Shown here piece by piece: positions 499-15,865 of a stretch of 32,000 nucleotides of DNA (position 1 is the first letter of the stretch; each line of letters opens with the position of its first letter). The translations under genes were made by a program, and so were the position numbers. Source of the DNA: Candidatus Nanohalobium constans. GTDB taxonomy: Archaea; Nanohalarchaeota; Nanosalinia; Nanosalinales; Nanosalinaceae. Location: positions 360,001 to 392,000 of the forward strand of contig NZ_CP040089.1 in the NCBI RefSeq assembly GCF_009617975.1, given 5' to 3'. The notes beneath the pieces are model-generated. The model had not been told where the DNA came from. It saw nothing but the letters and a program-made list of their open reading frames with translations, and made no database searches.

Positions 499-1065
499 GT
501 GGTAGATAGAAAGCTGAAGAGATGGGTTGAGCAGCAGTTGGATAAAGGGGAATCACGTGAAGTAATACAGAAAGCTTTAGAGAATAAGGGCTATGATCCT
601 TCGATAGTAGATGAAGTTGAAGAAGAGGAGGTTAGTTCAAGTATCTCCATCAATTCTGAGGATAAAATCAGAAAAATATCTTTAGGTGTAGAGAAGGGTA
701 TTGAAGGAGCATCTGAAATCCGTGTTAAACAAGTGATAATCCTTTCGACCATATTAACAGCTTTATTTCTAGGATTATACTTTCAGCCATTTGCCACAGA
801 CAAAAAAACATCAGAAGAACCTGCAACAGTAACCTTGGGAAAAGTCTCTGCCAATCCGGCAACAGCTACAATCAACCGTACTGATGCTGTTAAATTCAGG
901 AACAATGCGTCACATTCGTTCAAGGTAAGTTTTGACAGGAATATCTCTTCTTTCAGCATTCAACCCGGTAGTTCTGTGGTCAGGAATTTTAACAGAACCA
1001 CTTATTATGATGCCGACCCATTGGATGATGGACGTACAATTAAGGGAAGTATCTATACTCCTTGA
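499..1065 (+). CDS. single-pass membrane protein: N-terminal short helical 'KGY' module, TM helix, cupredoxin-like beta-rich C-domain
   Basis: GTG start about 27 nt after the T-rich box 467-477. N-terminus KRWVEQQLDKGESREVIQKALENKGYDPSIVDEV, one TM helix (VIILSTILTALFLGLYF), C-domain pattern ATINRTDAVKFRNNASHSFKVSF. Paralogue of 1110-1748, and of 13279-13716 in the C-domain. Fold call is from memory of the motif, not a search. Confidence 0.65.
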   Translation: MVDRKLKRWVEQQLDKGESREVIQKALENKGYDPSIVDEVEEEEVSSSISINSEDKIRKISLGVEKGIEGASEIRVKQVIILSTILTALFLGLYFQPFATDKKTSEEPATVTLGKVSANPATATINRTDAVKFRNNASHSFKVSFDRNISSFSIQPGSSVVRNFNRTTYYDADPLDDGRTIKGSIYTP

Positions 1066-1076
1066 ACACAAGGAAC

Positions 1077-1088
1077 TATTTTTTATTC
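1077..1088 (+). promoter_or_regulatory. TATA-like box for 1110-1748 (leaderless-type spacing)
   Basis: tattttttattc is centred about 28 nt upstream of ATG 1110. Archaeal TATA boxes sit about 25-28 nt upstream of the transcription start. Confidence 0.3.
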
Positions 1089-1109
1089 GAACTTTGACAC
1101 AAAAGAATT

Positions 1110-1748
1110 ATGGAGGATTCAAACATCCGGAAATGGATCGAAAAAGAATTGAGAAACGGAGAGAATCCTCGTGAACTCAAGGAAGCACTTCTGGAAGAAG
1201 GCTACAAACCATCAATAGTAGACGAAGTAAAACAAGAAACAAACCATGAAAAAACGACAAACAATACAGAAGAAATTAAACAAAAAATACAGAAAAGCGA
1301 AACAATAACCGAAAAACTCGAAAAAGAGATAAAGAAAGAATGGAAACCAAGGCTAGCTATAATCATAGTCATAGCAACAGTAGCAACAGGAACAATTCTA
1401 GCAACACCAATAACAAACACAATAAACAACACAGATAAACCTATCCAGGAAAAAACCGGGCAGACCGACCAAACAGAAAAACAAAACAAGGCAGGAAACA
1501 CCACCACAATCAAACTCTCTAATGGTGTAGCCAAGCCATCAAGACCATCAATAACGCCAGAAGAAAACATAAAATTCCAAAACAAAGAAAACTACAAAAT
1601 GAAGATAGTATTCGAATCAGAAAAAGAAAACCTGCAGATACCCGCCCAAGACTCCAAAACAACAAACCTTAACTCACTGACATACTACACTGCAAAACCC
1701 GCAGAAACCACTGCAGAACAAATATCAGGATCCATAATAGTCCAGTAA
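1110..1748 (+). CDS. single-pass membrane protein, paralogue of 499-1065 (KGY module + TM + cupredoxin-like C-domain)
   Basis: N-terminus RKWIEKELRNGENPRELKEALLEEGYKPSIVDEV aligns with the 499 ORF. TM helix LAIIIVIATVATGTILA. C-domain ITPEENIKFQNKENYKMKIVFES. TATA-like box 1077-1088 lies about 28 nt upstream of the ATG. Confidence 0.7.
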   Translation: MEDSNIRKWIEKELRNGENPRELKEALLEEGYKPSIVDEVKQETNHEKTTNNTEEIKQKIQKSETITEKLEKEIKKEWKPRLAIIIVIATVATGTILATPITNTINNTDKPIQEKTGQTDQTEKQNKAGNTTTIKLSNGVAKPSRPSITPEENIKFQNKENYKMKIVFESEKENLQIPAQDSKTTNLNSLTYYTAKPAETTAEQISGSIIVQ

Positions 1749-1834: not shown

Positions 1835-3433
1835 TTGAAACCAAAAAGTACAAAGATACTTACAACACTTTTCTCACTTCTAATACTGACAGGAATAGCC
1901 ACAGCCACCGACCTACAAAACATAGAATCAATAACACCTCTAGGATCACAAAACATTAATGTCAACGGAACACTAGACCTAAACAATAACAACCCAATCC
2001 TAGCACCAACAAAAGTAGACGGAGTAGACCTAGACAACCCGGCATGGGGCCTATACCTCAACAACAACCAATACAGAATAGACACAGGAGACACAGACTC
2101 AAGATACCTAAACCGTAATGGCGATGCCATGACAGGAGATCTTAATCTGAAAGATAACAGTATAGAAAACGCTGTAATATCTCCTTTCTCATGGATAAGT
2201 GACCCGGTTATACTTGGTCATTACAATAATTACTTCATTGGTGCCGATGAAAAATGGAGTGTTTCATCCAACACTAATTGTCGTTCAGGAAGCTTAGAAG
2301 ATTTATTCGATCATCAGTGGAATTCAGGATGCGACTTCAACGATGCAGATCTGCCTGTAAAAATCAAAATAGATTTTAACAAAGCAAACACATACTCATT
2401 TTCCAACGACTTCGGCAAAATGATGCTTTACTTCGAGTACGGTAGACATGTTTCAGACGTCAAAGTCGAAAGATACCATGCCGGAGGAGACGACACCTGT
2501 GGAGACGGAAACGAATATTGGGATACCATATACCAAAACTCCAACTTTAAAGGCAAAAAGACCATAATAGACATGAAAGGAGATGGTCAGACCTGTCAAC
2601 TCAGAACCACACTGGACGGAAACTCTGAATATACCGACGACATAAGATTCAGCTCATGGAACATGTATCTCCACGGGGATAGAGGAACTCAAGGAGGCTC
2701 CCTAAGAAAATCAGGAGACAATATGTACGGACCACTGGATATGAGCAATAACCCAATCAAAAATATCGACTGGAGCAACAGCGACCAACCTCCTGGAAGT
2801 ACTGATGATCAAAACCTACAAGACACATCAAGGAACAGTGGTACAGTAACAATTCCAATAGAAAACGGAGGAAGCACGTCCTTCACCGACAAATACGAAG
2901 CCAATACAGACGCTGCCACGAGATGTGGAAGTGATGAAGTTCTTGAGGGAGGTGACAACTGTGTCTCAAATTATGAAGCCGCAGATGATGGAGATACTTC
3001 AAGCACAAACGAACTTCAGAACCTTGGTCAAGTCTTAAGTCGAGGAAGTGATGCCAACAACGCTAACCTAAACAATATTAACGATGTCAGATGGACTGAC
3101 AATTCCGGCAATGATATAGCAGGTTACGTGAACAGTGAGAAACAACTTGCATTCATCCAAAAATCAGGAACTGTAACCGGCGTAGCAATAAAAGCAGGCG
3201 ATCTAGACCTTGAAGGCAACTCCATAAACAATATAGGAGGACTTCAAAACTGTGGTGCAGACGAATTTGTCAACGGAAACGGAAACTGCGTGAAAGACAG
3301 CGATACCTCCAGCAGCCAAAACCTTCAACAAACACTGAGCAACGGAAACAGTGCAGGAACCAACAACATAGATCTAAACGGACAAAGCCTAACATCGTCA
3401 AATGGCGAAATTTGCGCCGGAAACAGATGCTGA
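1835..3433 (+). CDS. secreted fibre-like surface protein with tail-fibre-type motifs and a duplicated Cys-pair module
   Basis: TTG start followed by a Sec-type signal peptide (MKPKSTKILTTLFSLLILTGIATA). Motifs DSRYLNRNGDAMTGDLNLKDNSIEN (nt 2120-2170 covers the GDAMTG part) and SGDNMYGPLDMSNNPIKNI (2711-2767). Internal repeat CGSDEVLEGGDNCV...DTSSTNELQNL / CGADEFVNGNGNCV...DTSSSQNLQQTL. Confidence 0.75.
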   Translation: MKPKSTKILTTLFSLLILTGIATATDLQNIESITPLGSQNINVNGTLDLNNNNPILAPTKVDGVDLDNPAWGLYLNNNQYRIDTGDTDSRYLNRNGDAMTGDLNLKDNSIENAVISPFSWISDPVILGHYNNYFIGADEKWSVSSNTNCRSGSLEDLFDHQWNSGCDFNDADLPVKIKIDFNKANTYSFSNDFGKMMLYFEYGRHVSDVKVERYHAGGDDTCGDGNEYWDTIYQNSNFKGKKTIIDMKGDGQTCQLRTTLDGNSEYTDDIRFSSWNMYLHGDRGTQGGSLRKSGDNMYGPLDMSNNPIKNIDWSNSDQPPGSTDDQNLQDTSRNSGTVTIPIENGGSTSFTDKYEANTDAATRCGSDEVLEGGDNCVSNYEAADDGDTSSTNELQNLGQVLSRGSDANNANLNNINDVRWTDNSGNDIAGYVNSEKQLAFIQKSGTVTGVAIKAGDLDLEGNSINNIGGLQNCGADEFVNGNGNCVKDSDTSSSQNLQQTLSNGNSAGTNNIDLNGQSLTSSNGEICAGNRC

Positions 3434-3468: not shown

Positions 3469-4098
3469 ATGGAAGACGAAATAGAAGACATTGTGGAAGA
3501 CGAAGAGAAAGCAGAAAAACTCTCACAGCTTATAGAACAAAAAATAGAAGAAAAAGTAGAACAAGTATCAAGCAGAGAAACAGAACAAAGAGAAAAAAAT
3601 ACCAAAGAAGAAAAAGAGGAAGTATCCCGCCGAGGATTCCTGAAAAAACTAGGAGCCGGAGCACTCGGCCTAGGAGCAGCCTCAATGCTCCCATCAGTCT
3701 CAGCCTACGACATCAAATCCTCAGACGGACTAGAAGTCTGGTCAGGAAGCAATCAACTAATAGACGCCAGTAGCGCACCCGTAGAGATAATGAACTCAAA
3801 TCTCCGCCTCGCCACTGGTCGGAGTATCGAGGATGGGAATGGGAACTCTCTGTTCAACATCCGTGACGGATACGGATATATGCTACACGGACAGTCTGAT
3901 GAAACCTCAAGAGCGTTGTTACATGATAAAACAATGGGCAACACTGCTCTAAGTTACACCACGTCGACCAGCGCACCTGGCACGTTGGAATTGACGAACG
4001 CGGATTTGAATGTTGGTTCTAATAAAATTAAAACCAGTAATTTTGAGGTTGTGGAAAACTCTGATACTAATAGTTTGGATTTCAATTATACGGGTTGA
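3469..4098 (+). CDS. Tat-signal fibre-like secreted protein with a long acidic pre-RR extension
   Basis: SRRGFLKKLGAGALGLGAASMLPSVSA matches the Tat consensus S/T-R-R-x-F-L-K plus an h-region and AxA-like site, with RR at residues 54-55. Mature part ends in GTLELTNADLNVGSNKIKT. Paralogue of 13791-14963. Confidence 0.8.
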   Translation: MEDEIEDIVEDEEKAEKLSQLIEQKIEEKVEQVSSRETEQREKNTKEEKEEVSRRGFLKKLGAGALGLGAASMLPSVSAYDIKSSDGLEVWSGSNQLIDASSAPVEIMNSNLRLATGRSIEDGNGNSLFNIRDGYGYMLHGQSDETSRALLHDKTMGNTALSYTTSTSAPGTLELTNADLNVGSNKIKTSNFEVVENSDTNSLDFNYTG

Positions 4099-4107
4099 TT
4101 CTGGTTT

Positions 4108-7056
4108 ATGAGTCTAGTTGGTTGGTGGAAGTTAGATGGCAGTGCTGAGGATTCTATAGGAAGTTATAATGGTTATGAGCAAGGCAGTCCTTCTTATTCA
4201 AATGGGAAAATTGGAGATTGTTATGACAATACTAGTGGAGGTTCCAACGGTGTAGAGTTGATTCGCCATAGTGATTTCGTAGAGTATGAAGATTACTATT
4301 CCTTTTCACTCTGGTTTAAATCTACTACTACATCCGGTAATGGAGGGGCGCGTATCATATCACGCGATTACTCGGAATATGCTACTGTCTTATTAAGCCA
4401 GAATGAGTCATCACCACAGTCCTCCAGTAATAAAGGTCTACCCGATTTCTCTGTAAGCGTGAATCAATGGCATCACTTAGCATTCTCAGTAGATGTGGGG
4501 TCCGATGAAGCAAGGATTTTCCTTGATGGCGAACTTGTCGGTACTAGCAGCACCCATAATACTGAAGCAAATCGCCCCTATGTTATTGGAGGAAACACTG
4601 AAGGAGATGGAGATATAAGCGGCAACCACTTTGAAGGCAAGATAGATGATGTAAGACTCTACGATCATAAACTATCAAAAAAAGAAGTAAAGCAGCTTTC
4701 AAGGGCGAAAGTTTTGCATTACAAGTTTGATGATTTTGCCGAGTATACTGAGAACATAATTAAGGATAGTAGGTTAGAGGAGCCTGACATGGATTATGGT
4801 TGGAAGGGAAATGCTTCTAGTAATACAGTGACTAAAGAAGATAATTCTGCCCCTTATCCCGAGGTTGTTCGTTTAGAGAAAACAGGTTCGGATGATCAGT
4901 GGCATGGAATGCATGATAATACAGAAGTTGTCAGTCTATCATCAGGAGATCATGTAACATATTCAGGGTGGTACAGATTAGAATCGGGTGCGACCCAGAA
5001 AAATTTAGCCGGGTTAAACTGGGTGTCAGATGGTTGGGATACTAAAGGAAGCAAGTCTATCACGATGGAGGATGATGAACTTTGGCACAGGTTTGAGATA
5101 ACAGTTGAAATAACTCAGGATTATTCTGACGGCTTTCAACCTGGTCTAAAATGGGCTTATTCAACAGACCAACAGTGGCTGGAGCTATGTGGCGTACAGA
5201 TAGAAACTAAAGACCATGCAACACCATTTGTAGCAGGAACACGGAAAGATAAAGTAGTTGATAGTAGCGGTCAAGGCAATCATGGTCCTCTGGATTCAGA
5301 TACTCCTACCTGGATTGAAAATTCGAAGATTGGATCTGGTGCTTACAGTTTTGAAGGAGACAAGATTCCTGTGAAAAATCTGTATTATGATTCTGCCAGT
5401 CAACTTCCTGAACTTACTTTGTCCGCATGGATTAAAGTTGATTCTAGTGGACAGGTAATTAATTCATGGGATAGAAGTGAGTTTTGGCGTTTTGGAGTTG
5501 GAGGAAGTACAGGTTCCAACGCTATAGATATAGGATTAGCTGATGAAAACGGCGTATCAGATATCAGTGCTAATACAGATGTAACAGATGGAAACTGGCA
5601 TCACGTGGTCTTCGTATATGACCATGGTTCTGTTACATTTTATCTAGATGGTGAGGTAGATGGAACAGCATCCACAGGCGGTAATGCCATAGGACAGAAC
5701 TTGACGAGATATGGTTTTATCGGCGACTACAGTGAAGCAGATTCATTCAATACAGGGTCCGGAGGATCATTTACGGGAGAAATGGATGATATAAGAATTT
5801 ATCACTCGGCACTCAACCAATCAGAAATCCAGCAACTCTACAAACAGAGAGCCAGTATTGATGGTGGCGGTAATCTTCATTCACATGAATTGCATGAAGC
5901 AGAAAATAAATTTGATGATTTTGCCGGCGGCGTAAATTCAGATACAGAGGTATTAGGAGCTCAGGACGGGTTTGAAAATGTTTACAAGGTCGATGCTAGG
6001 GAGAACGATTCCTATGAGAATTTCTTAACTAATTTAGTCAAGACCTCTGACTGGAGTAACTCGGGCTCAGGAAATTATCTTTATCTAGTGTACTGGGCTA
6101 AGGGAAACAACATTCCGGACTGGAGCCGCTCTGAAAACATACAATATCCTTCACCAAGCACATCCGAATACCAAAAGTATGTATTCCGAAATGATGGTCA
6201 AAATTCTAGAGATGAGTACTTCAGACAGTTCTTCGGCAACTCTGATAGCACCAGTTATGCATACATAGCAGACCCAAAAATCTTTACACAATCAGAATAC
6301 AAAAAGAGGAACGGCGTAAAATCCTCAGGCATTTACTCAATGGACGAATTCAACGAAATAGGGCCTGGCGCTGATTCCCTTGTCGGTTACTGGCCTCTGG
6401 ATGGCGACACCCGGGATTACTCCGGCAACGGCAACCACGGCACCAACAACGGCGCCACAGTTACCTCTGGACTGGGGCAGAGCGCCTATAGTTTTGATGG
6501 TACAAGTAGTTATATTTCAGGTTCTGGAAGCTTTACTTTCGATAATCTGACATTTAGTGCATGGGTAAGATATGATTCTGATGCGTCAGGAGGGTCTGGA
6601 AGCTTAGGAAATGCTGTTATTTCAAGTCAGTCACCTACTTTTCAATCTTCTCTGTATGCTGATATGGATAGCAATGAGCAGTTGTTTTATGTCTATCCAG
6701 ATAACGCTTCGTCTTCTACAATCGTATCTACCTCAATATCAAAAGGTAAATGGCTATTTGTTACAGGCGTAGTTAGAGGTTCAAATGTGGTTTTATACAT
6801 AAATGGTATCGAGAAAGGATCTAACACCTTAGATACCGACGGCAGTATATCATGGGGAGATCCTTTTATAGGCAGAGGCAACAGCAGCGAATACTTAGAT
6901 GGAAAAATCCAAGATGTAAGAATTTTCAACCGTGCCTTAACCGAAGAGGAGATCAAAACTCTCTACAACTTGACTGATCCTCGGCAGGATCAAAGAGCGA
7001 TCCAAGGAAAAGATGGAACTGTTTACACTAAAGGCGAATTCAACGAGTTGTTGTAG
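4108..7056 (+). CDS. 982-aa protein with three LamG/concanavalin-A-like lectin domains; no signal peptide
   Basis: Three copies of the Laminin_G_3-type pattern: LVGWWKLDGSAEDS...GKIDDVRLYDHKLSKKEV; VVDSSGQGNHG...GEMDDIRIYHSALNQSEI; LVGYWPLDGDTRDYSGNGNHG...GKIQDVRIFNRALTEEEI. The N-terminus MSLVGWWKLDG has no hydrophobic segment. The start lies 9 nt after the stop of 3469-4098. Confidence 0.85.
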   Translation: MSLVGWWKLDGSAEDSIGSYNGYEQGSPSYSNGKIGDCYDNTSGGSNGVELIRHSDFVEYEDYYSFSLWFKSTTTSGNGGARIISRDYSEYATVLLSQNESSPQSSSNKGLPDFSVSVNQWHHLAFSVDVGSDEARIFLDGELVGTSSTHNTEANRPYVIGGNTEGDGDISGNHFEGKIDDVRLYDHKLSKKEVKQLSRAKVLHYKFDDFAEYTENIIKDSRLEEPDMDYGWKGNASSNTVTKEDNSAPYPEVVRLEKTGSDDQWHGMHDNTEVVSLSSGDHVTYSGWYRLESGATQKNLAGLNWVSDGWDTKGSKSITMEDDELWHRFEITVEITQDYSDGFQPGLKWAYSTDQQWLELCGVQIETKDHATPFVAGTRKDKVVDSSGQGNHGPLDSDTPTWIENSKIGSGAYSFEGDKIPVKNLYYDSASQLPELTLSAWIKVDSSGQVINSWDRSEFWRFGVGGSTGSNAIDIGLADENGVSDISANTDVTDGNWHHVVFVYDHGSVTFYLDGEVDGTASTGGNAIGQNLTRYGFIGDYSEADSFNTGSGGSFTGEMDDIRIYHSALNQSEIQQLYKQRASIDGGGNLHSHELHEAENKFDDFAGGVNSDTEVLGAQDGFENVYKVDARENDSYENFLTNLVKTSDWSNSGSGNYLYLVYWAKGNNIPDWSRSENIQYPSPSTSEYQKYVFRNDGQNSRDEYFRQFFGNSDSTSYAYIADPKIFTQSEYKKRNGVKSSGIYSMDEFNEIGPGADSLVGYWPLDGDTRDYSGNGNHGTNNGATVTSGLGQSAYSFDGTSSYISGSGSFTFDNLTFSAWVRYDSDASGGSGSLGNAVISSQSPTFQSSLYADMDSNEQLFYVYPDNASSSTIVSTSISKGKWLFVTGVVRGSNVVLYINGIEKGSNTLDTDGSISWGDPFIGRGNSSEYLDGKIQDVRIFNRALTEEEIKTLYNLTDPRQDQRAIQGKDGTVYTKGEFNELL
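6907..7056 (+). repeat. copy 1 (in-gene) of the ~145-nt LamG 3'-end direct repeat
   Basis: Aligns by eye with 7932-8074 and 8775-8910. All three end in gagttgttgTAG. Confidence 0.85.
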
Positions 7057-7067
7057 CAGTTGGTTTT

Positions 7068-7553
7068 TTAGTTTTCTTTGAGTATGTTGTCTGTGTTTAT
7101 TTTTCGGTTGTCTTTTCGTTCTATTGTTTTGATTGAGTCTTTGAGTTCGTCTTTAGAGATTATTTCTTTTTGGTTTAGTAGTTTGGCGAGGTTGTTGAAG
7201 GCTATTGTCTGTACTTCTTGTTTTTCTGCGTATTTGGCGGCGGCTTGATCCATCGTGAAGAATATTGCGTTTCTTGATTCTGCTACTGTGATGGCTTCAA
7301 GTTCGCCCTTGTCAACTGATTGTTCGTTGAATCGTTCTCTGTACTGTTTTCTTTCTTCTTTGGCAGGTGTTTCAGTGTCTAACTTATCGAATATTTTGTT
7401 TGGGTATTTGTAGCCGTGTTCAAGCGGTTTTTCGAGTTCCTCTTCAATTTTAGGAGTAATGACGACTTTGTGGTTCTTAAATAGTTTTAGTGTTTCGTCT
7501 ACAAGTTCGCCTTTGGCTAAGACACTGGCTGCATCTGTATCGATTATAAGCAT
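7068..7553 (-). CDS. PIN-domain toxin (DUF3368 / COG2405-like)
   Basis: MLIIDTDAASVLAKGELVDETLKLF... and ...VDKGELEAITVAESRNAIFFTMDQAAAKYAEKQEVQ match the DUF3368 PIN pattern. I prefer ATG at 7553 (7 nt after the upstream stop) over the TTG at 7577 used in the ORF track. Confidence 0.75.
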   Translation of the reverse strand: MLIIDTDAASVLAKGELVDETLKLFKNHKVVITPKIEEELEKPLEHGYKYPNKIFDKLDTETPAKEERKQYRERFNEQSVDKGELEAITVAESRNAIFFTMDQAAAKYAEKQEVQTIAFNNLAKLLNQKEIISKDELKDSIKTIERKDNRKINTDNILKEN

Positions 7554-7560
7554 ACGGTTT

Positions 7561-7881
7561 TTACAGCCTCTTTTCAACTTCTTCTTTCTCTTCCTCGCCG
7601 CCTTCTCTGGTCTCTATGTTTATTCCTCTCTCCTTGAGTTCTTCTTTGTAGTTTTCCAGGTCCATTTCTGCGAGTTCGGCAGCCCTCATAAGTGAGATAT
7701 CCTTACTTTTGTAGAGCTCTACCGTTATCCTGATCCGTTTCTCAGGGTTCTTCCTCAGGAAAGTTCTGAATGCATCTCTCATGACATCGCTTCTGGAACT
7801 ATATTCTCCAGAATCAACGAGAACATCAATTTCATCCCTCATAGTTTCGGGTATACTGAAAGAAGTACTGGCACTTGTCAT
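7561..7881 (-). CDS. antitoxin, RHH (CopG-like) N-domain fused to a UPF0175-like HTH domain
   Basis: SFSIPETMRDEIDVLVDSGEYSSRSDVMRDAFRTFL is a ribbon-helix-helix pattern. VELYKSKDISLMRAAELAEMDLENYKEELKERGINI matches UPF0175, the usual partner of DUF3368 PIN proteins. ATG 7881 is preferred over TTG 7902. Confidence 0.7.
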   Translation of the reverse strand: MTSASTSFSIPETMRDEIDVLVDSGEYSSRSDVMRDAFRTFLRKNPEKRIRITVELYKSKDISLMRAAELAEMDLENYKEELKERGINIETREGGEEEKEEVEKRL

Positions 7882-7900
7882 AAACCTAACAATAGTTAGC

Positions 7901-7912
7901 AATATTTAATAA
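7901..7912 (-). promoter_or_regulatory. TATA-like box for the RHH-PIN operon
   Basis: aatatttaataa is centred about 25 nt upstream (minus strand) of ATG 7881. Confidence 0.3.
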
Positions 7913-7931
7913 CTTTAGCGCTGTACAGCAG

Positions 7932-8074
7932 ACCCAAGATATAATCCGGCGAATATGACTGCTGAGGAGGTTAAAACTCTATACAATTTGACTGATCCTC
8001 GACAAAGTCAGAGAGTGATCCAAGGAAAAGATGGAACTGTTTACAGTAAGGGTGAGTTCAGTGAGTTGTTGTAG
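7932..8074 (+). pseudogene. orphan copy 2 of the LamG gene 3' end (no gene body)
   Basis: Reads ...NMTAEEVKTLYNLTDPRQSQRVIQGKDGTVYSKGEFSELL* in frame with TAG 8072-8074. Stops lie immediately upstream. 14 mismatches to copy 1 over the last 96 nt (hand alignment). Confidence 0.8.
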
Positions 8075-8108
8075 CTGTAAGAATCTTGATTTTTAGGCGG
8101 TGATATTG

Positions 8109-8510
8109 TTATTTTTTGAATTCTTTTGGTTTATGGACTTCGAGTTCTTTTATTTTGTTGAAGTGTGAGGTGTTTCTTGTCACTATTTCGAGTTCTTCGG
8201 CGAGTATTATGGATGCGATTAGCAGGTCCATGTCGTCTACTTTGTTGCCTTGTCTTTCCAGTTCGGCTCTTTTCTTTCCGAAGATATGTGAGCTTTTTGC
8301 TGTAGTATGTAGAACTTTAACGTATTGTGCTAACTCTTCAACGTCTTCCAAGTGTTTTTCTGTCTTGGTTGATTTTTCGGCGCCGTGGTATAGTTCTGCA
8401 AGTGTTATAGAGGTTATAGCTATTTCCTCCTCAAACTCTTGGATAAACTCCTCGGTTTCTTTGTCTCCGCGTAGAAAATCGATGACAACATCTGTGTCGA
8501 AAACTTTCAT
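8109..8510 (-). CDS. vapC: VapC-type PIN-domain toxin
   Basis: MKVFDTDVVIDFLRGD..., ITSITLAELYHGAEKS..., DLLIASIILAEELEIVTRNTSHF: a classic VapC layout with conserved acidic residues. Overlaps the upstream antitoxin stop. Confidence 0.85.
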   Translation of the reverse strand: MKVFDTDVVIDFLRGDKETEEFIQEFEEEIAITSITLAELYHGAEKSTKTEKHLEDVEELAQYVKVLHTTAKSSHIFGKKRAELERQGNKVDDMDLLIASIILAEELEIVTRNTSHFNKIKELEVHKPKEFKK

Positions 8511-8713
8511 CAGTTGAATCGCCGGGACTCGCCTTCTCTGCGTTCGTAAATCTCATTTTTCATTTCTTCCAGGCTTTCTCCTTCCTCTGTCTCGTAGTCA
8601 GACCAGGCTCCAGCCATCTCTTCAAACGACTCCTTCGACTGTACCTCTGACCTTATCTTCCTTATCTCATCCTCTATCCTATTGAGTCTCGAGGTTATAT
8701 TTGCAGTTACCAT
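8510..8713 (-). CDS. vapB: small acidic antitoxin partner of VapC (VapB-like, family not assigned)
   Basis: 67-aa ORF immediately upstream of vapC, overlapping it by 1 nt. ATG 8713. AT-rich box 8734-8744 lies about 25 nt upstream. Confidence 0.6.
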   Translation of the reverse strand: MVTANITSRLNRIEDEIRKIRSEVQSKESFEEMAGAWSDYETEEGESLEEMKNEIYERREGESRRFN

Positions 8714-9062: not shown

Positions 9063-10253
9063 ATGGGTTTGAACGCTGCGGAAGTAATTAATCAAGCAGA
9101 ACGTGAAGAGGACCAACTCTACGATGACATCAGGGATGTTGCAGAGTGGTTCCACGAAAGGGAAGGAAAAATGTTTGAGAGAAGTGAAGCCGAGAAGAAA
9201 ATTAGCTCCGACCTTCAGTTTGAACCAGAACTTGTCAGTGAAGTTCTTGAAGAACTGACAAGCGACATTGTCGACCCTGTAGCACAGATAAACAACTCCC
9301 AAGGAAACTACATAGGCATAATCAATTATGAAGAATTCGACGCAGGTTACGTCTACCTAGACTACCACGATATAAACGGCGTACAAAAGAAAGCCGTCTG
9401 CGCAACATGCGTACAAAACTCAGAGAAAGACTCACAGGTAAAATATACATCATCAACTAAAATACAAGATGAAAAAAACCCCGACTACACAAAACTAAAA
9501 GAAGAAATAAACCAACACCACCAAAAACACCACAACACCAAAATAGAAAAAATAAAAACCGGAGCAACACTAGCAAGCGGAACAACAATAGGAGGAAACC
9601 GCGCAGCAACAAGAAACTGGGTCAACAACAACGCCGACGTTCCCAACGCCGACCATGCTGACAACGCTGGACAGCTTGAAGGTAATACTACCTCGCAAGT
9701 TCAAAGCCACTCTCCACAGGATCACGGAAACGGGTCGCATACCGAAAACTATGCCTCGCAGAATGATTTAGGGTATCAACTTATCGCCTCGGACGGTGCG
9801 AGCGGGTATATCGGCTCTGACGACGATCCTGATGTCTATACGTTCGATATCGGCAGCGGTTACACAAAAAGAGTCTTAACCTTTGAGAACGCCTCCGATA
9901 TTGATGCAAAATTGGGGGCGCGGTCTCCAGGAGTGGATTCATGGGATTATGTAAACCACGCGGAAGGTGCGGGTACTTCAGAGTTCTTCGGACAGGTTGA
10001 TGTGGCCGAAAGCGGTGCTGACATCGGTCCTGGGTATGCGTCATTTGAGGTAACTGAAGTACCCAGACCAGATGGTTCGATAAGTGTGGGGATCACTCGG
10101 TGGCATGACGAGATGAGTTCGGGCAACTATTATATTACCACCGCAGACCCCACGTTCTCGTCATCGTTCAGCACTTTAGAAGTTGTAGTTCAGCCAGACC
10201 CTCTTGACGACGGAGACTATGATTTTAGTTTTGAAGCATACTGCTTGAGATAA
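9063..10253 (+). CDS. modular fibre-like protein: conserved N-module (CxxC), K/H-rich linker, tail-fibre-type motif, unique C-domain; no signal peptide
   Basis: The N-module DIRDVAEWFHEREGKMFERSEAEKK...CATCVQNSEKDSQVKY...KTGATLASGTTIGGN is shared with 10687-11364. It is followed by AATRNWVNNNADVPNADHADNAGQLEG, a motif also found in 13791-14963, then a unique 190-aa C-terminus. Confidence 0.75.
   Translation: MGLNAAEVINQAEREEDQLYDDIRDVAEWFHEREGKMFERSEAEKKISSDLQFEPELVSEVLEELTSDIVDPVAQINNSQGNYIGIINYEEFDAGYVYLDYHDINGVQKKAVCATCVQNSEKDSQVKYTSSTKIQDEKNPDYTKLKEEINQHHQKHHNTKIEKIKTGATLASGTTIGGNRAATRNWVNNNADVPNADHADNAGQLEGNTTSQVQSHSPQDHGNGSHTENYASQNDLGYQLIASDGASGYIGSDDDPDVYTFDIGSGYTKRVLTFENASDIDAKLGARSPGVDSWDYVNHAEGAGTSEFFGQVDVAESGADIGPGYASFEVTEVPRPDGSISVGITRWHDEMSSGNYYITTADPTFSSSFSTLEVVVQPDPLDDGDYDFSFEAYCLR
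9561..9599 (+). repeat. 39-nt junction box, copy A (identical to 11182-11220)
   Basis: ggagcaacactagcaagcggaacaacaataggaggaaac encodes GATLASGTTIGGN. It is identical in both paralogues although the flanks are strongly diverged. Confidence 0.9.
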
Positions 10254-10686
10254 TGCTCAGAGTTAATTACTCCAATTCGTGTAGGTCGCCGTCGGGTGTT
10301 GAGTTAACAGGCGCGTCTCGTTTCGGGCTGCCTGTCGCTCATGGTTATTTGTCTTTGGCTGCGTAGTCGTTACCTGACAGATGCCTTCAGCTACCAGTGC
10401 CTATCGGAGGTTACTGGTTTCAAATCAAATAGTATGATAATGGCAGATAGATTTATCGACCAAGTAGCACCTGCTCACTCCCTTAATCTGCTCGTACTAC
10501 GACATTTTATCTGACTCTTGGATGCCGAGATGGTTATGTATATTCTTCTTTAACTGATTCTTCAATCCGTGTAGGAGCTAACAGTGGCAATGGTAAAGTT
10601 GCTATGCCGATGAAATTTTGAGTGTAAATAGTCTGCTGGAAAAGCTTAATAAGTAGTTTACCTAATGGTTGATTGTAGGTCGTGTT

Positions 10687-11364
10687 ATGAAGGCTGCTGA
10701 AAATGTGTTTGAGGAAGTAGAGGAGGATAACGTAGATATAGACAATTATGTCAGAGATGTTGCTGAATGGTTTCATCAACATGAGGGAGAGATGTTTGAG
10801 AGAGAAGAGGCAGTAGAAAAACTTGAGCAAGACTTTGATCTTAATGAAAAAGTAGCATCCTGTTTAATTGGAGAACTTGTAGGAGATAAAGTAGATCCTG
10901 TAGTGCAGATAAAGACAGATGATACTAGATACATTGGAGTAGTTGATTTCCAAGAGTTTGAAGGCGCCTATGGCTACATAGACCACCACGATGTCTTGGG
11001 CAAGCAAAAAAAGGTTGTATGCGCACAATGCGTAAAAAACGCTGCAACCGACTCACAAGTCAAATTCGAAACCGAAAAAATCAAAAACACAGAGAAAAAA
11101 CCAGACTACACCCACCTAACCAATAAAATACATTCCCACTACAAGAAAAGCCACAAACAAAAACCTGCAAAAGTTGAAACAGGAGCAACACTAGCAAGCG
11201 GAACAACAATAGGAGGAAACATCTCCTGGCACGCAGGCAACGACGGAAAAAACTCAGGACTAATAGCAGACAAAGTAGACGGAAAAGATGCTAATGATCT
11301 CGGAACTACAGCAGCAGAAAAAAGGTTTATCGCACTCAGCAAAACACACGGTAATGGGCAATAA
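10687..11364 (+). CDS. paralogue of 9063-10253: same N-module, short different C-terminus
   Basis: YVRDVAEWFHQHEGEMFEREEAVEK...CAQCVKNAATDSQVKF...ETGATLASGTTIGGN, then ISWHAGNDGKNSGLIADKVDGKDANDLG. ATG 10687 is preferred over the TTG at 10669 because it aligns with the paralogue's N-terminus. Confidence 0.75.
   Translation: MKAAENVFEEVEEDNVDIDNYVRDVAEWFHQHEGEMFEREEAVEKLEQDFDLNEKVASCLIGELVGDKVDPVVQIKTDDTRYIGVVDFQEFEGAYGYIDHHDVLGKQKKVVCAQCVKNAATDSQVKFETEKIKNTEKKPDYTHLTNKIHSHYKKSHKQKPAKVETGATLASGTTIGGNISWHAGNDGKNSGLIADKVDGKDANDLGTTAAEKRFIALSKTHGNGQ
11182..11220 (+). repeat. 39-nt junction box, copy B (identical to 9561-9599)
   Basis: Same 39-mer at the equivalent codons of the paralogue. Similarity stops exactly at its 3' end. 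Confidence 0.9.
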
Positions 11365-11367
11365 ATT

Positions 11368-11730
11368 ATGAATATAGGAGAAGGAACGAGCGGCGATTTA
11401 GAAATTACGTCAAGTGACACATGGTATACTATTAGTGTTCCAGCAGGTGAAACATGGGAGTTTACTACTGTTGGTTTAAGTTCAGGAAATCGTAAGGGTA
11501 ATGCACAGAATAATCATATTAAGGTTGGGTATGAGGATTCCAACGGAAATAACTATGTCTTGGTAGATCCAACAGACGACATGACCCCTCCTGTCGGAGC
11601 ATCACAGTTCGAAAACAACCATAGTCAATCTAAAACAATCCCAATAGATGGAGATACAATGAATGGTCTTTCTGTTAGATCTTCTATTGGGGGATACACA
11701 CTTGTTTGGTCGGCTGTGAGGGTTTCCTAA
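11368..11730 (+). CDS. small beta-rich protein, first of a tandem paralogue pair (MNIGE...)
   Basis: Starts 3 nt after the stop of 10687-11364. MNIGEGTSGDLEITSSDTWYTISVPAGETWEF...YTLVWSAVRVS aligns with 11732-12085. Confidence 0.65.
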   Translation: MNIGEGTSGDLEITSSDTWYTISVPAGETWEFTTVGLSSGNRKGNAQNNHIKVGYEDSNGNNYVLVDPTDDMTPPVGASQFENNHSQSKTIPIDGDTMNGLSVRSSIGGYTLVWSAVRVS

Positions 11731-11731
11731 T

Positions 11732-12085
11732 ATGAATATTGGTGAAACAAAGACGGATACAATTACAGTAGCGGGTGATTCAAATGATACGATTACTGTT
11801 CCATCTGGGGAAACGTGGAAATTCACTCATATAAACGCAAATAATAATAGTAATATATTGAGTAACGCTAATTTGTGCATTGGATACACTCTTTCTAATG
11901 GGGATCACTACATAATCAAAAATCAACGTGACGATCATACACCAGCAATTGGCGGAGAAGTGGCTCCAATAGATGATGCGTCTATTTCCTCCATTATTAT
12001 TGATGGAGATGTACACGAGGGAGTTTCTATTTGGGCTGATAGCAATGATTTAAAAGTATATTGGGCTGCAACACGTATTTCGTGA
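11732..12085 (+). CDS. small beta-rich protein, second of the tandem paralogue pair
   Basis: Starts 1 nt after the previous stop. MNIGETKTDTITVAGDSNDTITVPSGETWKF...LKVYWAATRIS. Confidence 0.65.
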   Translation: MNIGETKTDTITVAGDSNDTITVPSGETWKFTHINANNNSNILSNANLCIGYTLSNGDHYIIKNQRDDHTPAIGGEVAPIDDASISSIIIDGDVHEGVSIWADSNDLKVYWAATRIS

Positions 12086-12338: not shown

Positions 12339-12551
12339 ATGGCATTGATTGGTCCGGCGGAGATGGTACTTGTGGGTGCTGCTATTGTGGCATTGATTTT
12401 TGGTCCGAAAAAGCTTCCTGAATTGGCTCGTAGTTTAGGTGAGTCGAAGAAGGAGTTTAAGAAGTCTATGAAGGAGGCTGATGATTTGGCTGATGAGGCT
12501 ACTCCTGATGTTGAGGGGCAGGTGGAAGACATTAAAGGAGACCAGGAGTAA
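12339..12551 (+). CDS. tatA: twin-arginine translocase subunit TatA/E
   Basis: N-terminal TM helix followed by FGPKKLPELARSLGESKKEFKKSMKE, the canonical TatA hinge and amphipathic helix. Acidic tail. Confidence 0.9.
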   Translation: MALIGPAEMVLVGAAIVALIFGPKKLPELARSLGESKKEFKKSMKEADDLADEATPDVEGQVEDIKGDQE

Positions 12552-12561: not shown

Positions 12562-13251
12562 ATGCAGGGATTGGATAGACATGTCCAGGAACTCAGGCAG
12601 AGGTTGAAGTTTGTTTCTATATTCTTTTTGTCATCGACGGTGCTTGCTTTCTATTTTTCATCTAACATTCTTAACTGGCTTCAGAATGATTTAGGTTTTT
12701 CTCTGCATGCTTTGACTGCGTATGAGGTTCTCTACACCGAGTTGATGATTGCTTTCCTCGGTGGTTTTCTGTTGAGTCTTCCTTTCATCCTGTTTGAGGC
12801 TTTGGCTTTCATGAAGCCGGGTTTGAAGGAGAGTGAGTACAAGGCTATGCGTAACTATCTTCCATTCTCGGTCTTCCTTTTCGTTACGGGCTCGGTATTT
12901 TCCTACAATTTTGTTGTGAAGACCAGTTTGAACTTTTTTCAGGCTACTGCGGGCTCAGCTGATGTAGCTGCCCTGTGGGGTCTGCAGAACACTATCGGTT
13001 TTGCGTTGCGTCTCTCTGCTTTCACAGGAATTATCTTCCAGCTGCCGATAGTTTCAATGGTTTTAGCCCATGCAGGAGTTCTTAACAAGGACAAAATGGT
13101 TGAATACCGCCCATACTTTTTTGTTGGCATCCTGCTGGTTTCAGCTCTAGCTACGCCGCCGGACGTGATCTCGCAGGCACTAGTCACAGTACCGGTTATA
13201 TTTCTCTACCAGATCAGTATCTTCCTGGTGTCCCGGATAGAGGAAACTTAA
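12562..13251 (+). CDS. tatC: twin-arginine translocase subunit TatC
   Basis: HVQELRQRL (the HLxELRxRL motif) at the N-terminus, multiple TM helices, and ATPPDVISQ near the C-terminus. Lies directly downstream of tatA. Confidence 0.9.
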   Translation: MQGLDRHVQELRQRLKFVSIFFLSSTVLAFYFSSNILNWLQNDLGFSLHALTAYEVLYTELMIAFLGGFLLSLPFILFEALAFMKPGLKESEYKAMRNYLPFSVFLFVTGSVFSYNFVVKTSLNFFQATAGSADVAALWGLQNTIGFALRLSAFTGIIFQLPIVSMVLAHAGVLNKDKMVEYRPYFFVGILLVSALATPPDVISQALVTVPVIFLYQISIFLVSRIEET

Positions 13252-13278
13252 AAACAGGTAGAAAACTAAAACTCTACC

Positions 13279-13716
13279 ATGGGCGATGGAAAAGTCGTAG
13301 ACGAGGTCAAAAAGAAATCCTGGAGAAACAAGAAATTAAAGGAAGCCAGCCTTGCCATCGGCTTAGTTCTCCTAGGCGGATTAGCTGCCTTCATGCTATG
13401 GTCGGGAACAGAAGATACTCCTGACAGTTACGCAGACGCAGGATCAGATACCGTACACAAAACACAGATGGATGCAGCCGAAGTCTTCAACATCACAGAC
13501 ATAGGTGTCGCACCAGCATCACACACCGTCAAACTAGGCAAATCAGTCGGCTTCAGAAACAAACTAGGCTCCGAAATATCCATAACCTTCGACAGAAGCA
13601 ACGACACCATAGAAATTCCATCAGGCAAATCCGAAACACTTCTAATCAACGGAATAACCTACTTCCAAATATCAGGCAACGACTACTCAGCCCAAGGAAG
13701 AGTAAACGTACAATAA
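13279..13716 (+). CDS. single-pass membrane protein with cupredoxin-like C-domain (third family member)
   Basis: TM helix ASLAIGLVLLGGLAAFMLW. C-domain VAPASHTVKLGKSVGFRNKLGSEISITFDRSNDTIEIPSGKSETL resembles the C-domains of the 499 and 1110 ORFs. Starts 27 nt after tatC. Confidence 0.7.
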   Translation: MGDGKVVDEVKKKSWRNKKLKEASLAIGLVLLGGLAAFMLWSGTEDTPDSYADAGSDTVHKTQMDAAEVFNITDIGVAPASHTVKLGKSVGFRNKLGSEISITFDRSNDTIEIPSGKSETLLINGITYFQISGNDYSAQGRVNVQ

Positions 13717-13790
13717 AAAAACACTCCGCACACAATAAACAATTTTAATCGACACAACCCAAAAAACACTCAGAGGCTCCACCAAGAACA

Positions 13791-14963
13791 ATGAAAAAAG
13801 ACTCTAATACCGACCAGAAAATCGAAGAAATAATAGAACAAAAAGTAGAGCAAAGAGTACAAGAAGAACTAGAAAAAAGAGGAATTGAAAAAGCAGAAAG
13901 CGACGAACAAGAAGAATCAAATAAAAAAGAAGTCACCCGAAGATCATTCCTCAAAAAACTAGGAGCAGGAGCAATAGGAATCAGCGCACTATCACTCAGC
14001 CCAGCCTCAGCACTAAACATCAGAAGCAACGACTTCAGCGTCTACGCAGGCAACGACTCAACCAAAGAACTCCAAGTAAACAGCGGCGGACCAGTAGAAG
14101 TTAAAAATTCTGACCTGGATTTAACTGGAGGCAACTTAGATAATACAACTTTTATTGATTTCGGAGATAGAGATGATGATGGATATTATTGGCGGCAAGG
14201 AGTTCTCTCAGATGACGAATGGTTTCTTCAGTGGAGAAATGACAACGGAGATAATAAAATACCTTTGAGAATACCGATGTCTTCTAACTACATCCGAATT
14301 GATGAAAATATTAGGTTGCAGACAGGTCAATCGCTTGAAGATGATTCGGGAAACAGTAGACTAGAGTTTAATTCATCTACGGCGACTCAGGTCCGTGATG
14401 GAGCAGGAAATCTGGCAGCACAGTACAAGGACTCCAACCATATAAAGTTCTTCCCAAGAAGCGGTCAACCTTTCATCATAAATGATCAGAATGGAGAGTT
14501 TAACGCAGTTAAATACACAACCGACTCAACCAAAGGAACTCTAGAGTTGACCAAAGCGAACCTAGACATGAGGAATAACAATATCAAAAATGTCGAAAAG
14601 ACAACATTCAACAACTCAGGCAATGACTTCTGGCGGATAAATGATGGTTCGGGAGGGTCCAATACCAGCCCGCACACAGCACGATTTGACGATAGAGACA
14701 TGAGGTTCTACTCGGGTACAGGAATTGGAACAGTCTGGAGGCTAAACCAAGACGGCTCAGTAGAATATCCCGAAGGACCAGTAACTATCAATGGAGACCA
14801 AGTAGCAACCCGGAAATGGACTAAAAATAATGCTGATGTACCCAATGCTGATTATGCTGATAGTGCTGGTGATGCTGACACTGTGGATGGTAGTAATGTT
14901 TTTGTGCAGTCTTCTCAGCCTTCAAATCCTTCTAATGGGGATATATGGGTTGATACTAGTTAA
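13791..14963 (+). CDS. Tat-signal fibre-like secreted protein, paralogue of 3469-4098 with a longer C-terminus
   Basis: TRRSFLKKLGAGAIGISALSLSPASA with RR at residues 50-51, after an acidic extension. GTLELTKANLDMRNNNIKNV. C-terminus VATRKWTKNNADVPNADYADSAGDADTVDGSNVF. Confidence 0.8.
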   Translation: MKKDSNTDQKIEEIIEQKVEQRVQEELEKRGIEKAESDEQEESNKKEVTRRSFLKKLGAGAIGISALSLSPASALNIRSNDFSVYAGNDSTKELQVNSGGPVEVKNSDLDLTGGNLDNTTFIDFGDRDDDGYYWRQGVLSDDEWFLQWRNDNGDNKIPLRIPMSSNYIRIDENIRLQTGQSLEDDSGNSRLEFNSSTATQVRDGAGNLAAQYKDSNHIKFFPRSGQPFIINDQNGEFNAVKYTTDSTKGTLELTKANLDMRNNNIKNVEKTTFNNSGNDFWRINDGSGGSNTSPHTARFDDRDMRFYSGTGIGTVWRLNQDGSVEYPEGPVTINGDQVATRKWTKNNADVPNADYADSAGDADTVDGSNVFVQSSQPSNPSNGDIWVDTS

Positions 14964-15865
14964 TGGCGGAACACATTCTTCATGGTCCTGACAGTGAGCA
15001 ATGGACTGTTCCTGAGGGGGTCACCGAAGTTACTATTGAGTGCTGGGGTGGTGAAGGAGGAGATGGAAATGGAGATACTGATGATGGAGCCGGAGGTGGA
15101 GGCGGCTATGTGAAAGGAGATCTATCTGTTACTCCGGGAGAAACCCTGCATTTGGTAGCAGGCGGAGATGCTTACCGTGGAGAGGATTCCGGCGGATTTC
15201 CTAATGGAGGTAGCGGAGACGTCAGAGGTACGAATATGGAGTATCAATTGGTAGAAAGTGGGGGCGGCGGTGGTTCCTCACACGTTATGCAAGGTGGATC
15301 TGACCGCCAAAACGATGTTGTTATCGGGGCTGGCGGCGGTGGTGGAGGTGCAGCCGTTAGTTCAGGAGGTGGCGCAACTAACTATGATGACGGTAAGAGA
15401 GGTGGTCACGCGAACGGAGGTGATGCACCAGATACAATAGAATACGAAGGAGGGCAGGGAGGAGAAAGCAGCAAGTCAGATCCAACAATTGGAGAAGATG
15501 GAAATCAAGAAAAAAAGACAAAGGATGGAGACGCATATCTTGGAGCCAGTGGTGGAGGCGGAGGAGGTTTCAATGCTGGAAGCCGCGGCATAGTAGATAT
15601 TACCTTCAGCAGAAACGACCTCAACGCCACAGGAGGAGGAGCAGGAGAACAATACACTCTAGGCGTAACCAATGTAACAACAAAAGACAATGAAAATACA
15701 GGAAACGGCAAGGTCAAAATTACGTACACAGAGCCTGTAACTGTGAAATACTGGGATGGATCAAAATGGGTTTCAGGCAGGCTAAAATACTGGGATGGAT
15801 CAAAATGGGTTATGGCAAACGAAATAAGCAACTTTGACGGCTCACAATGGCAGACAACATCCTAA
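14963..15865 (+). CDS. glycine-rich-domain protein (phage-associated Gly-rich type), no signal peptide
   Basis: WTVPEGVTEVTIECWGGEGGDG followed by four poly-Gly tracts (GAGGGGGY, ESGGGGGSS, GAGGGGGGAA, GASGGGGGGFNAG). C-terminal KYWDGSKWV repeated. The ATG overlaps the upstream stop (TAATG). Confidence 0.75.
   Translation: MAEHILHGPDSEQWTVPEGVTEVTIECWGGEGGDGNGDTDDGAGGGGGYVKGDLSVTPGETLHLVAGGDAYRGEDSGGFPNGGSGDVRGTNMEYQLVESGGGGGSSHVMQGGSDRQNDVVIGAGGGGGGAAVSSGGGATNYDDGKRGGHANGGDAPDTIEYEGGQGGESSKSDPTIGEDGNQEKKTKDGDAYLGASGGGGGGFNAGSRGIVDITFSRNDLNATGGGAGEQYTLGVTNVTTKDNENTGNGKVKITYTEPVTVKYWDGSKWVSGRLKYWDGSKWVMANEISNFDGSQWQTTS
15746..15811 (+). repeat. two perfect 27-nt copies at 39-nt spacing inside the Gly-rich gene
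   Basis: aaatactgggatggatcaaaatgggtt occurs at 15746-15772 and 15785-15811. It encodes KYWDGSKWV twice. Confidence 0.9.

Follow-up and report, generated by a model that had tools for sequence, protein, structure and literature searches.

Tat-signal fibre genes and their coupled signal-less partners in Candidatus Nanohalobium constans: putative receptor-binding cassettes of tailed-virus ancestry around tatAC

How DPANN episymbionts recognise and hold their specific hosts is an open question, and the candidate adhesins put forward so far are lists of LamG and PKD 'surface proteins'. Candidatus Nanohalobium constans, a cultivated ectosymbiotic DPANN archaeon that is paired with Halomicrobium LC1Hm (PMC7443923), raises this question at a particular place in its genome. 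In the stretch of 32 kb analysed here (the window), two genes for fibre-like proteins with signals of the twin-arginine translocation (Tat) pathway are each coupled to a gene for a protein without export signal, and the second pair (locus B) lies behind tatA and tatC. An earlier note on this DNA had seen in locus A and locus B a twice-repeated three-part module (cupredoxin-like membrane protein, Tat-signal carrier, cargo adhesin) of an episymbiotic DPANN cell. On re-check, every open reading frame (ORF) that it had listed was found at its coordinates, its features (single-pass proteins, Sec fibre, Tat fibres, tatA-tatC, coupled partners) were confirmed and its guess about the lifestyle of the cell agrees with the source organism. 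The 10 window proteins compared are the deposited gene calls of strain LC1Nh, within QGA80320-QGA80337. Our reading, to which we assign a probability of roughly 0.5, is that loci A and B derive from tailed viruses and are receptor-binding cassettes, in which a Tat-exported fibre would carry a signal-less tip out of the cell as host adhesin. The features on which this reading is built are the following:

1835..3433, + strand: Sec-signal fibre-like protein with an N-terminal hydrophobic signal-like segment and the C-terminal end ...LTSSNGEICAGNRC
3469..4098, + strand: Tat fibre A, 209 aa, short proximal fibre and putative carrier
3469..3705, + strand: export module of fibre A, consisting of an acidic amphipathic helix plus linker (aa 1-52), SRRGFLK (aa 53-59, nt 3625-3645), an h-region and a cleavage-type site between VSA and Y after aa 79
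4024..4095, + strand: tail tag at the C-terminus of fibre A (KIKTSNFEVVENSDTNSLDFNYTG), conserved among fibres of nanohaloarchaea and of viruses, with a LamG gene next in every locus found
4108..7056, + strand: signal-less 982-aa protein with three Laminin_G_3 stretches, putative distal adhesin or cargo, 9 nt behind the fibre A stop
12339..12551, + strand: tatA, above the Pfam and NCBIfam cut-offs
12562..13251, + strand: tatC, above the Pfam and NCBIfam cut-offs
13791..14963, + strand: Tat fibre B, 390 aa, with a tail ending ...SNGDIWVDTS before the stop
13791..14012, + strand: export module of fibre B, consisting of the helix before the twin-arginine (RR) motif (aa 1-48), TRRSFLK (aa 49-55, nt 13935-13955), an h-region and a cleavage-type site between ASA and L after aa 74
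14963..15865, + strand: signal-less Gly-rich protein, 300 aa, 25% Gly, with a C-terminal KYWDGSKWV repeat, putative distal tip or cargo, its start overlapping the fibre B stop by 1 nt

By sequence comparison, both pairs are homologous to tail-fibre and receptor-binding modules of viruses, a relationship that the earlier note had overlooked. The partner protein of locus A, in which three Laminin_G_3 (PF13385) stretches were recognised (E 3e-64, 216 bits vs a threshold of 27.6), aligned end to end with the product of a viral contig (L025 10001-13018; 59% identity over the first 221 aa, E 1e-75), and the tail ...EFNELL is common to both proteins. A fibre tail tag followed by a LamG gene was found in nine further loci, mostly viral contigs in which the fibre carries a virion-type N-terminus instead of the Tat signal. 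Tails reading ...NSLDFNYTG or variants of it directly before the stop, with a LamG protein of the MSLVGWW type behind them, occurred in L019, L021 and L022 and in the viral contigs L025, L026, L037, L038 and L040, and L027 has ...NDIWIDTSG tails ahead of its LamG genes. L019, which comes from another organism, is an exact repeat of locus A: the C-terminus of a Sec fibre, a Tat fibre ending ...TNSLDFNYTG, 12 nt and a signal-less ORF starting MSLVGWWKLNGNAEDS. When the LamG head was searched for in metagenomes and viral contigs, we obtained L021, L022, L025 and L026, whose upstream fibres end ...SLDFN(Y/F)xG or ...SLDFNFI and lack a Tat signal. The search for the tail tag yielded L037, L038, L040 and once more the L025 contig; the next gene encoded a LamG protein starting MSLV(G/A)(H/W)W in all four cases, and the N-termini of these fibres were of three different virion types. 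It can be seen that the head-keyed and the tail-keyed searches agree on the fibre-LamG pairing.

For locus B, we found that the fibre core was 49-73% identical to fibre or baseplate proteins with virion-type N-termini. One of the relatives of fibre B (P0009, in L024) ends ...AIWVDTS, and the signal-less gene behind it overlaps its stop codon by 1 nt, as observed at 14963. The viral contigs, which were taken from IMG/VR and Logan, were inspected for hallmark genes, and L024 with its major head, tail sheath (1.5e-123), tape measure and baseplate wedge genes is a bona fide myovirus. The halophile character of this contig shows in a GC content of 0.59, in a gene with a HalOD1 domain and in repeats that are also present in Halorubrum proteins. 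The fibre of L026 matched a tail-fibre PHROG (1e-20). A tblastn search of a cultured-phage collection gave no match for LamG domain 1 or the fibre B core, and thus the viral link rests on the IMG/VR and Logan contigs. What the earlier note had called a carrier plus signal-less cargo can now be described as a conserved two-gene cassette with the same tail tags and the same kinds of partners in at least nine other loci; the cupredoxin-like third part does not belong to it, as detailed further down.

The N-terminal part of the two window fibres is of a different kind. Both fibres, which are paralogous (E 1e-21), pass the curated cut-off (16.7 bits) of the TIGR01409 Tat-signal model, with 26.2 bits for fibre A and 17.4 bits for fibre B, and the window's tatA and tatC are intact. 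The hydrophobicity of their h-regions is KD19 1.30 and 1.43, and the cleavage-type sites listed above were read from the sequence. In the family alignment RRxFLK was invariant among the 13 members aligned, which come from other nanohaloarchaeal metagenome-assembled genomes (MAGs) and from metagenomes, and it was followed by a G/A-rich h-region and then by a conserved AxA site. Homologues of fibre B have a conserved N-terminus of 37-53 residues, in which an amphipathic, often heptad-like acidic helix (...EELIEKKVEERV...) precedes a linker of about 20 aa. In length and in conservation, the pre-RR helix and linker of the window fibres (3469-3624, 13791-13934) exceed a normal Tat n-region by far. 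This helix would leave with the signal peptide and might serve as a handle for chaperones or proof-reading, or might bring about oligomerisation before export. Behind the export module the family diverges into varied fibre and tip domains, and some of the Tat fibres end in ENRPPYxAL, which we read as phage tail-collar-like from its sequence. Those homologues with the N-terminal export module that carry an organism name belong to nanohaloarchaeal MAGs, and most others are unnamed metagenome proteins. A genome scan with an N-terminal alignment of five closer sequences detected seven nanohaloarchaeal Tat-fibre loci, four of them from one MAG. Members of the family also stand among housekeeping genes, for instance between rpl15e and RNase P p30 in L001.

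When the N-terminal alignment was run against 2.9 M viral contigs, the sole match was a generic bacterial oxidoreductase Tat signal, so that the export module is cellular. These data also bear on the question of whether the loci are simply remnants of an integrated virus, devoid of cellular function and with Tat-like sequences that are incidental. That both pairs are strongly homologous to fibre modules of viruses would suit such an origin, as would the insertion-like behaviour of the cassettes and the toxin-antitoxin and signal-less fibre-like genes between the two loci. However, capsid, terminase, portal, sheath, baseplate and integrase genes as well as tRNA genes were all missing from the 32-kb window, and the helix-plus-RR module, absent from the viral contigs, is conserved in many nanohaloarchaeal genomes beside housekeeping genes and tatAC. 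We consider a functionless remnant very unlikely.

The proximity of the fibres to tatAC, which had been noted for the window, recurs elsewhere. In six loci from separate assemblies (window, L007, L008/9, L010, L012, L020) Tat fibres lie about 1-2 kb from tatA-tatC or tatC; in L012, where TatC is 71% identical, Tat fibres are located on both sides. With genomes of about 1 Mb, a rough estimate gives each fibre locus a chance of about 1% of lying within a few kb of tatC, and 6 of about 14 independent loci is far above this. A further case, on which the literature makes no remark, is Ca. Nanohalococcus occultus: going by locus tags, its TatC (SVXNc_0793) is near the LamG/adhesin genes SVXNc_0798-0813, and its Tat system was judged 'likely inactive' by the authors (PMC10266531). 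The distribution of TatC across the nanohaloarchaeal phylum is patchy (PMC9765267).

Comparison with a close relative (L033/L034) indicated how the cassettes behave around tatAC. This genome is collinear with the window for tatA, tatC, an orthologue of TM3 (the cupredoxin-like protein encoded behind tatC, see below), Pus10, Rpb4, DUF655, RrnaAD and CTP synthase. The slot between TM3 and Pus10, which in the window (13717-16003) holds fibre B and its Gly-rich partner, is occupied in L033 (2281-3242) by an MNT/HepT toxin-antitoxin pair. TM3 stays at tatC when the fibre pair is missing and is therefore linked to tatC, whereas the fibre pair is a cassette that was inserted and varies between strains. 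Between window 12562-13716 and L033 1120-2280, TatC is 59% and TM3 51% identical, vs 89% for Pus10, 85% for CTP synthase and 80% for RrnaAD in the flanks. A fibre-like ORF upstream of the L033 tatA showed weak similarity only (E 0.009) and was not counted.

The gene directly upstream of the Tat fibre of locus A belongs to a Sec-signal fibre family (that of 1835-3433, C-terminus GNNITSSGGEICxGxYC), which we found in the same position in the window, L007, L010, L012, L019 and L020. This Sec-signal fibre, treated as an aside in the earlier note, is what is conserved on the upstream side of the Tat fibre. Beside the Sec-fibre/Tat-fibre pair, four other organisms encode conserved Cys-rich Sec-signal proteins of about 300 aa on the opposite strand:

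L007 3142-4053, - strand: Cys-rich Sec-signal protein
L010 1993-2928, - strand: Cys-rich Sec-signal protein
L012 39-950 and 1457-2371, - strand: two Cys-rich Sec-signal proteins
L020 733-1662, - strand: Cys-rich Sec-signal protein

A Cys-rich counterpart was not noticed among the window ORFs, where no search aimed at one was made.

The partners of the two Tat fibres carry no export signal of their own. A transmembrane-like segment was found in neither of them (maximal KD19 1.31 for 4108-7056 and 0.89 for 14963-15865), and in-frame stop codons precede the starts at 4108 and 14963 by 3 codons and 1 codon, respectively. These two observations exclude a cryptic signal peptide from an alternative start, a possibility that the earlier note had raised against its own proposal. 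The Gly-rich protein of locus B scored just under the Pfam cut-offs for Gly_rich_2 (22.6 vs 24.3 bits) and ALK_LTK_GRD (23.3 vs 24.5 bits). Its PHROG matches, up to 2e-16, were to families annotated without function, no sequence relative was found in the PDB, and in the viral-contig scan the matches were confined to the C-terminal KYWDGSKW repeat. Inside the tatAC/fibre island of L008 there are two proteins with archaeal class III (pilin-type) signals (1608-2090 and 7071-8228), the second of which has a Gly-rich C-terminal domain; such a domain is thus extracellular there, by a different route.

Each partner gene is tightly coupled to its fibre gene. The LamG gene of locus A starts 9 nt past the fibre A stop and in frame with it, and the Gly-rich gene of locus B overlaps the fibre B stop by 1 nt (TAATG), out of frame. 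When the fibre-to-LamG junctions of window 4096-4110, L019, L021, L022, L025, L026, L027, L037, L038 and L040 were compared, 8 of the 10 were in frame (spacers of 3, 3, 3, 6, 9, 9, 12 and 24 nt) vs one third expected, these junctions not being independent of each other. Such an excess is what one would expect if fibre A and the LamG protein were made as a single polypeptide by stop-codon read-through, in which case the Tat signal would be covalently attached and no separate protein would have to hitchhike on the fibre. However, all three stop codons occur at the junctions, L027 has a second in-frame stop within the spacer and the ATG of the LamG gene is conserved in every locus. Moreover, the frame is not kept in L038 (ATGA overlap), in L040 (7-nt spacer) or in locus B; in view of L038 and L040, read-through was rejected as a general mechanism, and we regard a fused product as extremely improbable.

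Taken together, the observations can be arranged into the following mechanism, which is the reading we prefer. Each cassette would comprise a proximal fibre with a C-terminal tail tag and a separately encoded distal tip, which is either a triple-LamG lectin-like protein or a Gly-rich protein. In the nanohaloarchaeal fibre the virion-anchoring N-terminus would have been swapped for a family-specific module of helix, S/T-R-R-x-F-L-K, h-region and AxA site. The coupled genes would be co-translated, and fibre and tip would be assembled while still in the salt-rich cytoplasm, as is required of their viral homologues. TatAC would then export the folded complex on the fibre signal alone, and the complex would be displayed or released as an adhesin for the envelope of the haloarchaeal host. 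The cassettes are strain-variable insertions around tatAC, and the cupredoxin-like proteins are their neighbours rather than components. Since the fibre is the only signal-bearing protein (with a signal for folded cargo) and the partner is coupled and signal-less, cytoplasmic assembly followed by Tat export is the simplest reading. The homologies, the signals and their absence from the partners, the gene coupling, the linkage to tatAC and the behaviour of the cassettes are shown by the sequences, whereas we infer complex formation, co-export and host binding. A role in host attachment fits the episymbiotic lifestyle, the halophile-type viral contigs, the export of a Gly-rich domain in L008 and the published prediction that LamG proteins serve attachment (PMC7443923).

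Several points weigh against this mechanism. Tat fibres without a coupled partner are frequent (two each in L001, L007 and L008, and others in L004, L005, L010 and L015-L017), so that hitchhiking does not hold for the family as a whole. In salt-in halophiles, it is nothing unusual for a secreted protein to carry a Tat signal. A trimeric fibre3-LamG3 complex, if it is built as in viruses, would exceed 350 kDa, which is above known Tat cargo sizes. The cleaved fibre has no obvious cell anchor; from the gene order, the upstream Sec fibre is a candidate for this function. Pairwise phmmer comparison of the Gly-rich partners of different loci revealed no homology among them. Finally, the MSLVGWW head of the LamG protein corresponds to the first LamG_3 strand and the same motif is present in an internal repeat at aa ~757, so that it is no proof of a dedicated docking peptide.

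Alternatively, only the Tat fibres would be exported and the partners would stay in the cytoplasm, either as fibre-assembly chaperones of the phage Tfa/gp38/gp57 type or as non-functional baggage of the acquired viral cassette. The gene behind a phage tail fibre often encodes an assembly chaperone, several partners are small (101-134 aa in L012, L013 and L014), and most Tat fibres have no partner at all. For the small partners such a fate is plausible. On the other hand, a protein of 982 aa with three lectin-like LamG domains and with virus homologues over its full length is implausible as a chaperone; neither window partner ORF is disrupted, at least nine loci conserve the start of the LamG protein together with the tail of the fibre, and in L008 a pilin-type signal exports a Gly-rich domain. 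We judge this explanation unlikely. The size of the fibre-LamG complex, which may be limiting for Tat, would pose no problem if the partners reached the outside by other means (vesicles, lysis of a subpopulation, a signal-independent pathway) and joined the exported fibre there. The Sec fibre and the Tat fibre, going by gene order, would likewise have to assemble outside the cell, and cytosolic-type glycosyl hydrolases were reported in the coculture secretome (La Cono et al., PMC7443923). The tight coupling (9-nt gap, 1-nt overlap) and the cytoplasmic assembly of viral fibres favour assembly before export, which makes the extracellular route distinctly unlikely. Furthermore, we know of no such pathway in nanohaloarchaea.

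The preferred mechanism of assembly and Tat export leaves aside the third part of the module that the earlier note had proposed, the cupredoxin-like membrane protein. Three such genes are present in the window:

499..1065, + strand: TM1, small N-terminal cytoplasmic helical domain, one transmembrane helix and a C-terminal copper-less cupredoxin-fold domain
1110..1748, + strand: TM2, paralogue of TM1 with identical architecture, its C-domain being the sequence that was modelled
13279..13716, + strand: TM3, single-pass protein with a copper-less cupredoxin-fold domain

Each of these proteins has one strongly hydrophobic segment (KD19 1.85-2.19), and the three are paralogous (E 8e-21, 2e-8, 5e-7). 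A word-indexed homology search with TM2 returned the self-match only, whereas a profile of the three C-domains detected 131 cluster representatives, mostly of 140-270 aa and with the same layout of N-region, transmembrane helix and C-domain, several of which score sub-threshold for Cupredoxin_1. With a 22-sequence C-domain profile, plastocyanins ranked first in the PDB (E 5e-4). An AlphaFold2 model of the TM2 C-domain, which rests on the alignment of 22 sequences (pLDDT 92.5; with three sequences the model was unusable, pLDDT 43), has eight strands, and its top Foldseek matches were all cupredoxins (plastocyanin, Cupredoxin_1, EfeO, FtrB, amicyanin and the N2OR CuA domain; TM-score 0.64-0.71). 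The eight-stranded beta-sandwich and an N-terminal sequence motif are shared with Cupredoxin_1 or plastocyanin-like domains (PF13473; PDB 4hcg, 1pcs, EfeO 7wgu, FtrB 8vuk). Unlike these, TM1-TM3 contain no Cys and no conserved His/Met ligand set, and the domain is membrane-anchored by a single pass. Among the 22 aligned family members there was no invariant His, Cys or Met. Since Cys is lacking, TM1-TM3 have no type-1 copper site; the model thus indicates a cupredoxin fold and not blue-copper proteins, and the earlier note's assignment is borne out for the fold, without the copper ligands.

The idea that this protein helps to display the carrier-cargo pair derives from its gene lying upstream of both window loci on the same strand, and a predicted extracellular domain with a beta-sandwich fold would be compatible with it. 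The three-part arrangement holds within the window, but in other genomes the three parts form no conserved unit: the C-domain hidden Markov model detected a cupredoxin-like protein in none of about 30 other retrieved loci with Tat fibres, BLAST detected it in no other fibre locus, and L033/L034 keep the TM3 orthologue directly behind tatC although the fibre pair is absent. In addition, L019 has Sec fibre, Tat fibre and LamG gene without a visible gene of this type (on a 1.2-kb contig with only 44 codons of the upstream gene). In L035 (909-3534), a nanohaloarchaeon-like contig without tat genes, a TM3 homologue lies directly downstream of a diversity-generating retroelement (Avd plus reverse transcriptase), which also speaks against a three-part apparatus. 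We give this apparatus very little credence and no longer regard the cupredoxin-like protein as a part of the module.

Between the two loci the window contains further genes whose membership in the system is uncertain:

9063-10253 and 10669-11364, + strand: two signal-less fibre-motif paralogues
11368-11730 and 11732-12085, + strand: two small paralogous beta proteins

The two fibre-motif proteins are 49% identical and consist of an N-domain of about 170 aa (CxxC...HHxxHH) followed by fibre repeats common to fibre B; the N-domain of 9063-10253 had no match among the viral contigs scanned. The two small beta proteins resemble, by eye, ORFs behind the Tat fibre of L013, where BLAST gave no match. 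The region 9063-12085 may represent a third class of fibre cassette. On the opposite (-) strand, 7068-8713 holds two toxin-antitoxin-like pairs, one with an RHH/UPF0175 antitoxin (7561-7902) overlapped by a 169-aa ORF without Pfam match and the other with a PIN toxin (8109-8510) and a small partner upstream (8510-8713). Outside the fibre loci, 23317-26085 encodes a large conventional surface protein with a Sec-type signal, Ig-like domains, 22 N-glycosylation sequons and a C-terminal transmembrane anchor. Its architecture shows that export of large surface proteins in N. constans can also be conventional, with everything needed in one protein.

The proposed co-export has two kinds of precedent. 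Tat hitchhiking is exemplified by HybO/HybC of hydrogenase-2 and by DmsA/DmsB of E. coli, and tailed viruses have modules with a separately encoded tip, such as gp37 plus the Gly-rich gp38 of T2/S16 and the branched tailspike systems. The window loci resemble the Tat hitchhikers (reviewed in PMC6708511) in that the signal is on one subunit and the signal-less partner is adjacent or co-translated, and in the window the translocase for folded proteins is encoded nearby. The cited hitchhikers are cofactor-containing redox enzymes, whereas the putative cargo here consists of virus-derived lectin-like or Gly-rich adhesin domains, and the signal of the window fibres has a conserved helix of 37-53 aa before the RR motif. 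With the viral modules (L024-L027, L037, L038, L040) the loci share homologous fibre cores, the tail tags (...NSLDFNYTG, ...IWVDTS), the LamG partner, the gene order, the tight coupling and the modular shuffling of N-terminal anchors. They differ from them by a Tat export module in place of the virion anchor, by their location in a cellular genome beside tatAC and housekeeping genes, and by the lack of other virion genes. We rate the proposal as a combination of Tat hitchhiking and domesticated viral receptor-binding proteins, each of a kind that is already known.

Surface adhesins with LamG/ConA-like and PKD domains as well as SPEARE proteins have been predicted for nanohaloarchaea and other DPANN archaea, and N. 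constans reportedly has eight strain-specific 'secreted' LamG-type proteins and lacks SPEARE proteins (PMC7443923, PMC10266531, PMC9765267). The strain-specific LamG proteins were predicted to mediate attachment (PMC7443923). The window cassettes are like these published adhesins in their LamG lectin-like domains, their strain specificity and the proposed host recognition. None of the three papers describes the Tat-fibre family or reports that this LamG protein is signal-less, that it is coupled to a Tat carrier, that there is linkage to tatAC or that the cassettes have viral homologues. Our full-text literature searches retrieved no description of the Tat-fibre family, its tatAC linkage, virus-type fibre cassettes of nanohaloarchaea or Tat hitchhiking of adhesins. 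In a different DPANN system, cryo-electron tomography visualised 'antennae' with bulb-like tips, recalling phage tail fibres, on AS-7 cells (PMC11329633), which we take to be the host.

These data offer a concrete and testable mechanism in a cultivated symbiont-host pair, with proposed host-binding modules of tailed-virus ancestry, a dedicated Tat module and swappable cassettes at tatAC. If co-export holds true, Tat hitchhiking would extend from redox enzymes to adhesins, and this would suggest why patchily distributed tat genes, called 'likely inactive' (PMC10266531), persist in tiny genomes. More tentatively, and with some doubt on our side, nanohaloarchaeal Tat may be largely dedicated to pre-assembled, virus-derived fibre-adhesin complexes, with the pre-RR helix as an assembly or oligomerisation checkpoint and with cassettes exchanged with halophile-type tailed viruses, so that the symbiont would find its host by means of viral receptor-binding proteins. 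Co-export, if true, would connect the host-range evolution of virus and symbiont.

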